The position numbers were made by a program, and so were the translations under genes. The notes beneath the pieces are model-generated. The model saw only the letters and a program-made list of their open reading frames with translations. It did not search any database and had not been told where the DNA came from. A stretch of 31,999 nt of DNA. Source: an uncultured Myxococcales bacterium. Lineage in GTDB: Bacteria; Myxococcota_A; Polyangia; JAHFDS01. The DNA is taken from the NCBI GenBank assembly GCA_964593795.1, contig CAZQJC010000017.1, positions 81,389-113,387 on the forward strand, given 5' to 3'. This document shows positions 20,115 through 22,700 of this stretch, piece after piece (positions within the stretch are counted from its first letter, which is position 1; each line of letters opens with the position of its first letter).

Positions 20115-20903
20115 TCAGCCCAGCTTGCTCAGGATCTGCTCGCGCCCGAAGAGGGGGCGCGCGACGAGCAGGATGCCGACATCGACGGCGCCTAGCACCA
20201 GCGAGAACGTCACGTAGAAGCTCGGGCCGAGCACGAGCCGGAACGCGGCCTGGCTGGCGATGATGCCGACGATCGGCAGGATGAGCAGCACCGCGGCCTG
20301 CTGCGCCGAGCGCGGGTCGCGCGCGCGCGCCGACACGAGGAGCATGAGGAGGTCCGCCGCCAGCGTCAGCGGCGGCGTCACCACGCCGAGCGCGAGCGGC
20401 CAGCTCGAGCAGATGGCGTTCCACGCGTCCGCGTCCGGGTGCGACACGATGATCATGAACGCGGCCCCGACGGTCGCGGAGCCCACCGTCGCGAGGAGCG
20501 CGGGGATCGTCACCGCCAGCGTCTTGCCGAGGACGAGCTCGCGCACGGTCACCGGCGTCGCGAGGAGCGGCTCGAGCGTCCGCGCGACCTTCTCGCCGAC
20601 GACCGAGTAGCTGGCCAGCACCGACGACAGCATCGTCGGCAGGAGGAGGTAAACCGCCGCGAACTGCGCGACCACGATGCGCGTCGCTGCGGCGGCAGGC
20701 GCCAGGCCCGCCACGTCGAGCCCGGAGAACTTGGCGGCCTGGAGCTGCTCGAGCGCCCGCGGATCGTGCGTGATCGCGGCGGCGACGAAGCCCGGCAGCG
20801 CGGCCAGCAAGATCGGCGGCAGGACGAGGCCCGACAGGAGGCCGGGCCGGCGGGCGAGATCGCGCAGCTCCTTCCTCGTCACGATCCAGACCTTGCCCGT
20901 CAC
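20115..20903 (-). CDS. ABC-2 type transporter permease
   Basis: GTG start overlapping the ATPase stop (GTGA). Six hydrophobic segments. Ends ...GREQILSKLG. Confidence 0.65.
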   Translation of the reverse strand: MTGKVWIVTRKELRDLARRPGLLSGLVLPPILLAALPGFVAAAITHDPRALEQLQAAKFSGLDVAGLAPAAAATRIVVAQFAAVYLLLPTMLSSVLASYSVVGEKVARTLEPLLATPVTVRELVLGKTLAVTIPALLATVGSATVGAAFMIIVSHPDADAWNAICSSWPLALGVVTPPLTLAADLLMLLVSARARDPRSAQQAAVLLILPIVGIIASQAAFRLVLGPSFYVTFSLVLGAVDVGILLVARPLFGREQILSKLG

Positions 20904-21826
20904 GACGCGTCCCCTCCCGTGGCGTCCCCGCCCGCGTGACCCACGAGGCGGAAGTACAGCTCCTCCACCTTGGGCGTCGCGCGGCCGAGCTCGAGGATGC
21001 GCGCCCCCGCGCCGACCAGCGCCGCCACGAGCGCCGGGTGCACGCGCGCCTCGTCGTCGACGTGCACCTCGAGGCGGCCACCCTCGGCGCGGACGTCTCG
21101 CACGCCCGGCACCGCACGCGCGCACGCCTCGAAGCTCCGCGCGTCGCCGTCGACACGCACGAGCGACGGCGGCCGCGCCTCCAGCTCCGCCGTCCCGAGG
21201 AGCCGCCCACGGATCACGAACACACGACGGCACAGGCGCGCCGCCTCGTCGAGGTTGTGCGTGCAGAGCAGGATGGTGCGCCCCTTGGCGGCCTCCGCGG
21301 CCACCAGCGCGCGCACGGCCCTGGCCGCCTCCGGGTCGAGCCCGCTCGTCGGCTCGTCGAGGAACAGCACCTCCGGCTCGTGCAGCAGCGCCCGGGCGAG
21401 GGCGACCTTCTGGCGCATGCCCTTCGAGAACCCGCCCACCCGATCGCTCGCGCGGTCGCCGAGGCCGAAGTCCCCGAGGAGCGCGTCGATCCGGCTCCTG
21501 GCCCGGGCGGACGGCAGGCCGTAGAGGGCGGCGAAATACGCGAGGTTCTCGACCGGCGTGAGGTGGTCGTAGAGGCCGGGGGTCTCGGTCAGGAACCCGA
21601 CCCGCGCCCGGATCTGGTCGTTGTCCCGGCCCACGCGCAGCCCGCCGACCTCGGCCTCGCCCTCGCTCGGCGCGATGAGGCCCCCGAGCATGCGCACCGT
21701 GGTGGTCTTGCCGGCTCCGTTCGGCCCGAGCAGCCCCACGACCTCCCCGTCCCCTGCCTGCAGGTCGAGGTCGGCGATGGCGACGCGAGATCCGAACCGC
21801 TTGCCCAGCCCACGCGCCCGGATCAC
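20900..21826 (-). CDS. ABC transporter ATP-binding protein (ABC-2 exporter ATPase)
   Basis: GPNGAGKTT Walker A, LSGGMRQK-like signature FSKGMRQKVALARAL, Walker B LFLDEPTSGLD, H-loop CTHNL. Confidence 0.85.
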   Translation of the reverse strand: MIRARGLGKRFGSRVAIADLDLQAGDGEVVGLLGPNGAGKTTTVRMLGGLIAPSEGEAEVGGLRVGRDNDQIRARVGFLTETPGLYDHLTPVENLAYFAALYGLPSARARSRIDALLGDFGLGDRASDRVGGFSKGMRQKVALARALLHEPEVLFLDEPTSGLDPEAARAVRALVAAEAAKGRTILLCTHNLDEAARLCRRVFVIRGRLLGTAELEARPPSLVRVDGDARSFEACARAVPGVRDVRAEGGRLEVHVDDEARVHPALVAALVGAGARILELGRATPKVEELYFRLVGHAGGDATGGDAS

Positions 21827-21869
21827 CGGAGGATCGTACCAGGGCGCCGGCGGCGCCGCGAATCGCCGC

Positions 21870-22071
21870 CTAGTACCTCGCCACAGTGAAGATGATGGCT
21901 TCGAGCTCTGGAGGAACGCTGTGGCGAGGTACTACGTGGCGGGCCGCCGGGCCGCCCCAAGGCACGCCACAGGGACCCGCGCAGCCCGGAGGGCGGAGCG
22001 GGAGAAAACAGCTAGTACCTCGCCCCGCCACCTCCCACCAGCCGATCAAGACCCCTGTGGCGAGGTACTAG
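21870..22071. mobile_element. MITE-like non-autonomous element / structured repeat with perfect 17-bp terminal inverted repeats
   Basis: CTAGTACCTCGCCACAG at 21870..21886 and its exact reverse complement CTGTGGCGAGGTACTAG at 22055..22071. An internal second copy of each end lies at 21919..21934 and 22012..22024. The 8-mer CTGTGGCG/CGCCACAG occurs 6 times as three inverted pairs. The element is flanked by CTAG. No coding capacity. Confidence 0.5.
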
Positions 22072-22700
22072 GCCCAGAGGTCGGCGAACACCTCGAGGAA
22101 CGCCGGCTCGACCAGCGCCCGGACGTCGGCCATCGCGATCTCCCGGCCGGCCTCGACCGAGAGCGAGGTCATGACGCCCGCGGCGAAGCCGCACGGGTTG
22201 ATCGCGCGGAACTTCTCGAGGTCGGTGCTGACGTTCAGCGCGAAGCCGTGCAGGGTCACCCACTTGCGCACGGCCACGCCGATCGAGGCGAGCTTGCGCC
22301 GGCCGTCCACCCAGGTGCCGGTCTTGCCCTCGGCGCGCCCCGAGGGCACGCCCAGCCGCGCCGCTACCGCGATGAGCACCTCCTCCAGGTCACGGAGGTA
22401 GCGGTGCAGGTCGCGGCGCGGGCCGTCGAGCCGGAGGATGGGATAGCCGACGAGCTGGCCCGGGCCGTGGTACGTGACGTCGCCCCCGCGCTCGACCTCG
22501 AAGATCGGGATATCGCCCGGTGCGAGGACGTTGGCCACCGAGCCGAGCCGCCGTCCCAGCGTGATGACGTCGGGGTGCTCGCAGAGCAGGAGGGTGTCCG
22601 GGGCGGTTCCTGCGATCCGGGCCTGCAGGATCTCCTTCTGGAGGGCCCAGGCGGCGCCGTATTCGACCCTGCCAACCCAGCGGATCTCCGGGTGCCCCAC
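22068..22700 (-). CDS. lipB: Lipoyl(octanoyl) transferase LipB
   Basis: GTG start. EHPDVITLGRR, HGPGQLVGYPIL, RKLASIGVAVRKWVTLHGFALNV, the characteristic LipB motifs. 210 aa. Confidence 0.85.
   Translation of the reverse strand: MGHPEIRWVGRVEYGAAWALQKEILQARIAGTAPDTLLLCEHPDVITLGRRLGSVANVLAPGDIPIFEVERGGDVTYHGPGQLVGYPILRLDGPRRDLHRYLRDLEEVLIAVAARLGVPSGRAEGKTGTWVDGRRKLASIGVAVRKWVTLHGFALNVSTDLEKFRAINPCGFAAGVMTSLSVEAGREIAMADVRALVEPAFLEVFADLWA

Follow-up and report, generated by a model that had tools for sequence, protein, structure and literature searches.

A probable chimeric MITE of the IS630/Tc1-mariner family at the lipB stop codon of an uncultured Myxococcales bacterium

A 202-bp block that abuts the lipB stop codon in an uncultured Myxococcales bacterium is very probably a non-autonomous transposon (MITE) of the IS630/Tc1-mariner family, chimeric in build and inserted there as a selfish element. 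The block occupies positions 21870–22071 of the window, the whole 31,999-nt stretch of DNA that was analysed. A sequence-only reading of the same stretch had called it a MITE-like mobile insertion, and this call holds, as the terminal inverted repeat (TIR) of the block recurs in at least 111 stretches of other genomes, orthologous loci have empty sites, and full-length ISs carry the same TIR. The contrary outcome named in that reading, a TIR unique to this locus and orthologs without indel polymorphism, is not what these comparisons returned, given the at least 111 stretches elsewhere and the empty sites.

Results

Anatomy of the block

The block, counted as 202 bp including the flanking C-TA and TA-G, has perfect outer TIRs, is absent from four orthologous loci and matches a MITE/IS family at its ends. 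The outer arms, CTAGTACCTCGCCACAG at 21870–21886 and CTGTGGCGAGGTACTAG at 22055–22071, are complementary over all 17 nt, exactly as had been described from the sequence, and the outer inverted repeat reaches 19 nt once the flanking GC is counted. Four arms alternate in orientation across the block (left-type, right-type, left-type, right-type) and form two foldback modules, termed unit L and unit R. Unit L (21870–21935, 66 bp, with TA at both sides) begins with the complete outer left end (21870–21901, plus strand), in which CTAGTACCTCGCCACAG is followed by TGATGGCTT, the second block of the family consensus, and closes with an inner truncated arm (21919–21935, plus strand) that matches 16 of 17 positions, ends in CTAC, lacks TIR block 2 and pairs with the outer left end. 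Unit R (22012–22071, 60 bp, with TA at both sides) consists of a degenerate inner arm (22012–22028, minus strand), which matches 14 of 17 positions, reading CTAGTACCTCGCC before it diverges and again lacking TIR block 2, and of the complete outer right end (22040–22071), which reads CTAGTACCTCGCCACAG followed by TGATCGGCT on the minus strand. The loops of the two foldbacks are unrelated. Between the modules lies a 76-bp GC-rich spacer (21936–22011) with a GTGGCG...CGCCAC hairpin of its own at 21936–21970. Judging from the family ends and the IS630 literature, the putative TA target-site duplication has its left copy at 21871–21872 and its right copy at 22069–22070, the latter forming the lipB TAG stop together with the terminal base of the element.

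Matches to the 17-mer with three mismatches or fewer number four in the 32-kb window, compared with 0.05 expected, and no shuffle reached four; no further TIR blocks were found in the window beyond 21870–22071. The exact octamers CTGTGGCG/CGCCACAG likewise occur four times (at 21879, 21919, 21965 and 22055), a count that alone is not unusual, as 21 of 100 shuffles reach it. A fifth and a sixth half-site, ACGTGGCG at 21934 and CGCCACCT at 22025, are degenerate, with two mismatches each. Thus, where the sequence-only reading had described six half-sites arranged as three hairpin pairs, the three hairpin-capable pairs are present (21870–21886/21919–21935, 21936–21941/21965–21970 and 22012–22024/22059–22071), and the six motifs come down to four exact octamers and two degenerate ones. 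The only open reading frames overlapping the block are mechanical ones of 59–61 aa with no sign of coding, in agreement with the statement that it contains no ORF.

In unit L, complementarity runs 21 nt past the arms, with 21849–21869 matching 21936–21956 at 15 of 21 positions, so that 38 nt are complementary at 82% overall. This extra stretch joins the conserved flank upstream of the ABC gene with the spacer, and unit R has no such extension. It could have arisen by chance, given the GC-rich DNA, by inverted duplication in situ, or from a target site that was itself palindromic.

The lipB–ABC locus and its empty counterparts

The block lies between two genes that are both on the minus strand, as had been read from the sequence. 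On one side is lipB (22068–22700), encoding lipoyl(octanoyl) transferase (PF21948 at 3.6e-44); its homologs are named LipB, and these named homologs come from Polyangia or Myxococcales, in keeping with a high-GC window of Myxococcota origin. Downstream of lipB is the gene for an ABC transporter ATPase (20900–21826, PF00005). CTAG is seen at both ends of the block, and the right-hand CTAG does supply the lipB stop, a TAG at 22070..22068 of the minus strand. The 43 bp upstream of the ABC ATPase gene (21827–21869) are conserved and intact, and align with the orthologs up to the element boundary.

Four relatives keep the order lipB then ABC ATPase with a much shorter gap than the 241 bp of the window. 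The gap between lipB and the next gene is 48 bp in L113–115, where LipB is 87% identical to that of the window, 54 bp in L116–118 (82% identity), 12 bp as called in L120–121 (about 82% identity; same 90% cluster as P0003) and 57 bp in L122 (69% identity). The TIR core was found in the lipB–ABC spacer of none of the four orthologous loci, and alignment of the flanks extends as far as the outer TIRs: the L113 sequence is ...CTCTGG TAG ccgggccgcaattcgcgg, and the window reads ...CTCTGGGCC TAG, followed by 200 bp and then GCGGCGATTCGCGG. The comparison of orthologous lipB–ABC regions that the earlier reading had proposed therefore yields empty sites, with spacers of 12–57 bp free of the element. 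These short spacers indicate that the whole block, including its own 76-bp spacer, is an insertion relative to the nearest relatives.

A TIR family in public genomes

Scanning one genome per species for the exact 17-mer CTAGTACCTCGCCACAG returned at least 111 stretches from other genomes, the majority of them MAGs of Myxococcota. Among the matches listed, those in Myxococcota belong to Kofleriaceae, Polyangia, Sandaracinaceae, Myxococcaceae, Archangium, Haliangiales and Anaeromyxobacteraceae, and those outside it to Bradyrhizobium, Rhizobium, Vineibacter, Novosphingobium, Chloroflexia and Vicinamibacterales. Beyond Myxococcota, the 17-nt terminus is thus seen in Alphaproteobacteria, Acidobacteriota and Chloroflexota (L008, L011, L018, L036, L047, L050, L091, L095 and L096). 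Single matches occur in Mycobacterium, Porphyromonas and Saccharibacteria MAGs; some of the single matches may be due to chance or to mis-binned contigs, and the remaining cross-phylum matches suggest a wide horizontal spread of this IS630 subgroup. By hand count among the matches listed, one Kofleriaceae MAG has about 35 loci and MFD06435.bin.2.192 about 16. About 40 of the matches listed (hand count) are no more than 250 bp away from the end of a contig, as is typical of multi-copy repeats at which assemblies break.

Element sizes were obtained by pairing left-type with right-type ends. Among the matches listed, the modal MITE measures 166 bp (17 pairs), other intermediate pairs span 106–253 bp, mini forms are 39, 61 or 65 bp long (6 pairs), and long elements extend over 1185–1499 bp (8 pairs). 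The elements of about 166 bp are non-coding. An identical 39-bp mini-element, made of 27 nt of one end and 12 nt of the other, is present twice in MAG J06636_7, in opposite orientation (L056:537–575 and L069:3819–3857), and these two loci show that very short one-armed derivatives still spread; the same MAG also has a 191-bp element (L107) with ends matching those of its 39-bp element. At L014:7045–7249, a complete left end and a 140-bp interior are followed by ...CGATCGTA-CTAGTACC..., which leads straight into a 65-bp foldback unit. This arrangement looks like one element inserted into or beside another, and fits with element ends recreating CTAG targets.

Full-length partners encode an IS630-family transposase

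A search for full-length ISs with matching TIRs, suggested in the sequence-only reading, identified elements of about 1.49 kb with an IS630-family transposase. The exact 17-mer bounds elements of 1476–1499 bp in L008, L013, L025, L035, L036, L091 and L102. The two long elements tested, from Bradyrhizobium (L008) and Sandaracinaceae (L035), encode proteins of 373–378 aa that match NF033545, 'IS630 family transposase', at 247.9 and 243.9 bits, respectively (cutoff 100), and PF13358 (DDE_3) at 1e-28 to 1e-29, and that carry N-terminal HTH domains. Additional Myxococcota genomes with 166-bp elements also have homologs of the transposase and of a wHTH protein enclosed by TIR pairs, e.g. at L102 (MFD06435.bin.2.192). 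IS copies that are about 80% identical occur on plasmids of Bradyrhizobium, Rhizobium, Ralstonia and Streptomyces, where they are annotated 'IS630 family transposase'. Inside the 32-kb window, neither a transposase nor a wHTH homolog was found.

The full-length elements also carry a winged-helix ORF of 92–109 aa (LexA_DNA_bind-like) on the strand opposite to the transposase, which ends at or inside the TIR. It is located at L008:674–1003(-) and L035:7542–7820(+), and is present in L013, L025, L036, L091 and L102 as well; in L035, its stop codon is the terminal TAG of the element. Plasmid annotations of this ORF vary among HTH protein, 'SOS response transcriptional repressor' and MarR. The predicted winged-helix protein may be a regulator of transposition that binds the TIR.

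A bipartite TIR and a chimeric build

Across the family the TIR is bipartite and about 32 bp long, with nearly invariant positions 1–17, a variable hexamer at positions 18–23 and a conserved TGAnnGGTT at positions 24–32. In the window, the second TIR block is present only at the two outer ends, and the inner arms stop after 13–17 nt. The block joins two foldback modules into a chimera, and each module combines a complete outer TIR with a truncated inner arm. Its earlier description as a simple MITE with a 17-bp TIR needs to be amended accordingly: the MITE assignment stands, and the TIR length and the simple build do not, as the functional TIR is bipartite with about 32 bp and the block is a two-foldback chimera. 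The variable hexamers of the two outer ends agree at only 1 of 6 positions, compared with a mean of 4.7 of 6 within other elements, and agreement this low is seen in only 1 of 43 elements among the matches listed. The mismatched hexamers imply that the two halves come from different subfamilies and thus that the block is chimeric. Among the matches listed, the left outer end is closest to Kofleriaceae and Archangium copies (L041 and L005), and the right outer end to L109 and L051.

Foldback modules of 61–65 bp that resemble unit L are found in L010, L014, L038 and L062, most of them as the ends of longer elements. A module of the unit R type, i.e. a complete end plus a truncated GGGCGAGGTACTAG arm, forms one end of a subfamily of 193–205 bp (L026, L038, L010, L062 and L119). 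A metagenome scan for the L-R' module gave one match, L119, which belongs to the L026-type subfamily of about 200 bp and is not the version present in the window. In a blastn comparison of the window with all fetched loci, among which the source genome is not represented, only the first and last about 35 bp of the block matched other elements. The spacer alone had no blastn match in the fetched loci, a 20-mer from it had no exact match in the metagenome contigs, and its local alignments with the interiors of the L026/L038/L010 subfamily scored no better than shuffles. The 76-bp spacer is missing from every ortholog examined.

A second local copy is hinted at only by a Logan contig, L001 (SRR13076506), which agrees with the window at every position for about 2.5 kb through lipB. 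Its positions 2505–2589 correspond to window positions 22071–21990 (minus strand), with unit R identical at 58 of 60 positions and two C-to-T differences. Right after the CTAG of the module, L001 runs on into unrelated sequence, AGCACCGAACGGGTTGAACTGCGTT, that the window lacks. At this junction, either the assembly switched to another copy because of the repeat, or L001 represents a real structural or strain variant. An exact-protein look-up of the ABC ATPase, made for the other side of this junction in the Logan assembly, had no entry on record.

Probable insertion at TA within a preferred CTAG

TA precedes 147 of 151 family ends among the matches listed, a count biased to CTAG since the query itself contained CTAG. 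Among the partner ends of paired elements listed, the base next to the element is invariant, and the deviant ends are mainly TTAG on the left (TTAG...CTAG) or CTAA on the right (CTAG...CTAA), with the TA retained. Variation of the outermost base while TA is kept is what duplication of TA within an NTAN target would predict, with C and G as the preferred outer bases. The IS630 family inserts at TA and duplicates it, and the TA duplication has been demonstrated for ISY100 (PMC2170065); a preference of IS630 for CTAG is attributed in PMC2170065 to Tenzen & Ohtsubo 1991. Around the empty sites of the orthologs, the sequence has diverged too much to tell TA from CTAG as the duplicated unit, and a TA duplication of the window copy is deduced from the family.

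Element ends supply stop codons

With G as the first base of the element and C as the last, insertion into TA creates a TAG that reads inward from either side. Since TA plus G rebuilds TAG, lipB keeps its stop codon. This siting is common in the family: among the matches listed, 28 of 151 element ends (18.5%) supply the TAG stop of a coding-looking frame, meaning a long frame with high GC3, compared with 3 and 1 when the other two frames of the same 151 ends are used as a control. Ordinary CTAG sites in the same loci end such frames in 37 of 1073 cases (3.4%; Fisher p = 1e-10). The lipB insertion is one case of this stop-codon habit. Two likely reasons for the siting are that TA and CTAG are rare outside stop codons in these genomes and that gene-internal insertions are purged by selection, an insertion at a stop codon being harmless because the stop is regenerated. 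In two copies, L078:5212–5357 and L020:3938–4103, both terminal TAGs end long, high-GC3 frames on opposite strands, so that one element apparently supplies the stops of two convergent genes.

Predicted RNA folding of the region

The lipB-sense RNA of the region has a predicted folding energy of −146.5 kcal/mol (z = −4.4), most of which stems from the unit L hairpin (−42.8 kcal/mol, z = −6.7); the z-scores of unit R (−0.4) and of the spacer (−0.9) are unremarkable. A search of Rfam with positions 21500–22500 at a permissive E-value returned no family; the best match, 29 bits compared with a gathering score of 100, is to a eukaryotic miRNA hairpin model and represents a generic hairpin match. 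A scan of the same interval found no promoter-like or terminator-like site. The block also lacks the mark of an intrinsic terminator, a GC-rich hairpin with a U-run immediately behind it on the sense RNA. At unit L, the strong hairpin is followed by GGCGGCGAU. A terminator formed by unit R and the downstream UGUUUUCU run was considered and rejected, as the foldback does not form in the predicted fold, where the run pairs elsewhere, and unit R has z = −0.4.

Discussion

By analogy with the rest of the family, the element would depend for its movement on a transposase supplied in trans by full-length relatives of about 1.49 kb, and the N-terminal helix-turn-helix domains of this transposase would recognise the terminal repeat of about 32 bp, CTAGTACCTCGCCACAG-n6-TGAnnGGTT. 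Cut-and-paste transposition would then insert it at a TA, preferably within CTAG, and duplicate the TA. In the present case, the target TA would have been in or beside the lipB TAG, and insertion would have rebuilt the TAG. That the lipB stop is kept and the 43 bp upstream of the ABC gene are intact is probably the reason for which the insertion is tolerated.

Three other accounts of the block can be weighed against this assignment. CTAG flanks the block on both sides, as it does most members of the family, and at this locus it had been taken as a possible 4-bp duplication of the kind generated by some IS5-like transposases; some IS5-group elements do duplicate CTAG-like 4-mers. An IS5-derived MITE is nevertheless very improbable, because all full-length elements examined that have these TIRs encode IS630-family transposases, with NF033545 scores of 244–248 bits and a DDE_3 domain, and because copies flanked by TTAG...CTAG or CTAG...CTAA are inconsistent with a 4-bp duplication and are those expected when TA is duplicated within NTAN. 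The short, hairpin-forming, intergenic and multi-copy units in inverted pairs also recall REP/BIME-type palindromic elements moved by a RAYT (IS200/IS605-like) or by another hairpin-recognising system. We regard the probability of such an origin as negligible, given that the ends are identical to IS630-family TIRs, TA flanks are present, the 17-mer itself is not palindromic, and none of the loci examined showed an association with a RAYT. Finally, four copies of a 13–17-nt motif within a single 241-bp same-strand spacer, together with strong predicted folding of the region and of unit L in particular, could be read as a locus-specific regulatory structure, either a multi-site operator or a terminator/insulator hairpin array between lipB and the ABC operon, and roles of this kind had been proposed from the sequence. 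Against this reading, at least 111 unrelated sites across many genomes carry the motif, some of them at the termini of ISs that encode a transposase; a spacer of 12–57 bp free of any such sequence suffices at four orthologous loci; no terminator-like site or Rfam match was obtained in the region; and unit R folds no better than shuffles. A regulatory structure specific to this locus is thus highly unlikely. The simplest and most likely interpretation is that the block is without adaptive function and persists as a tolerated selfish insertion; an effect of the predicted hairpins on read-through or stability of the lipB–ABC transcript is possible.

Within the assignment to an IS630-family MITE, the order of events is less certain. 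We lean towards an arrival of the three pieces together, mobilised through the two complete outer ends, a single event for which the completeness of the outer TIRs and the clean gap in the orthologs speak. The mismatch between the outer TIRs could, on the other hand, reduce or abolish the mobility of the block as a unit. A stepwise build-up through two or three separate insertions, in which one mini-MITE of 60 bp landed at the lipB stop and another of 66 bp at a distance of 76 bp, with the spacer as older lineage-specific or degraded inserted DNA, is a less probable but tenable course. It would account for the TA on both sides of each module and for outer TIRs of different subfamilies with hexamers identical at 1 of 6 positions; truncated-arm mini forms are seen to disperse alone (L056 and L069; L001), and the ends of elements already in place recreate CTAG targets. 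It is harder to reconcile with the lack of the spacer in all orthologs, whose flanks align precisely as far as the outer ends, with the restriction of the complete bipartite TIR to these outer ends, and with L-R' modules that elsewhere travel within elements of about 200 bp. A combined scenario that we consider unlikely takes the family as a genome-wide gene-end module with co-opted copies and the spacer as foreign DNA captured by mini-MITEs. According to it, the elements may land on TAG stops in high-GC Myxococcota, rebuild them and place a hairpin immediately behind the ORF; a subset of copies, the double-foldback one at the lipB–ABC junction among them, could have been recruited to stabilise 3' ends or to act as insulators; and the spacer may have been captured between two mini-MITEs and moved along with them, in a MITE-mediated transduction of host sequence.

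The full-length partners resemble IS630 of Shigella sonnei and ISY100 of Synechocystis, members of the Tc1/mariner group, in their HTH-HTH-DDE_3 transposase, TIRs, TA flanks and CTAG at most sites. The window element differs in lacking a transposase, and the partners differ in their additional winged-helix ORF of 92–109 aa, which to our knowledge is missing from classical IS630 and ISY100. Bacterial MITEs derived from IS630-type elements include RUP of Streptococcus pneumoniae and Nezha of cyanobacteria. Like these, the elements described here are small, non-coding, TIR-bounded, TA-flanked, multi-copy and intergenic, and have only their ends in common with an autonomous IS630 element. They differ in sequence family and in host range, which here comprises high-GC Myxococcota, with the TIR also found in Alphaproteobacteria, Acidobacteriota and Chloroflexota, and the window copy differs further in being a chimera with two terminal foldback modules. 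The Correia elements of Neisseria are TA-flanked MITEs that are often located near gene ends and whose inverted repeats form RNA hairpins in co-transcripts, with a documented effect at the RNA level. TA flanks, hairpin-forming inverted repeats and siting close to gene ends are shared with the present family; the sequences are unrelated, and an autonomous partner was found here, whereas we know of none for the Correia elements. Stowaway-like MITEs are described in PMC3814204 as miniaturised Tc1/mariner derivatives that arise by microhomology-mediated internal deletion. The size series of about 1.49 kb, 166 bp and 39–65 bp, with the termini kept throughout, is what deletion derivatives would be expected to give; the mini forms found here differ in keeping one complete and one truncated TIR in a foldback shape. 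In the literature searched, which did not cover ISfinder, we found no described myxobacterial MITE or IS630 family with the TIR CTAGTACCTCGCCACAG. IS630-derived MITEs are thus already known as a kind, and the abundant Myxococcota family reported here is apparently undescribed.

These findings leave the understanding of transposition itself unchanged and bear instead on how such loci are read. The palindromic block between lipB and the ABC gene is to be understood as a mobile-element insertion and not as a regulatory site; it should be annotated as a repeat or mobile element and calls for no search for a binding protein. Because many copies lie at contig ends, the family is one that breaks short-read assemblies. 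The identity of the 17-bp terminus across several phyla suggests horizontal spread of the IS, and targeting of TAG stops combined with their regeneration offers a simple account of why, in high-GC genomes, MITEs come to abut genes.
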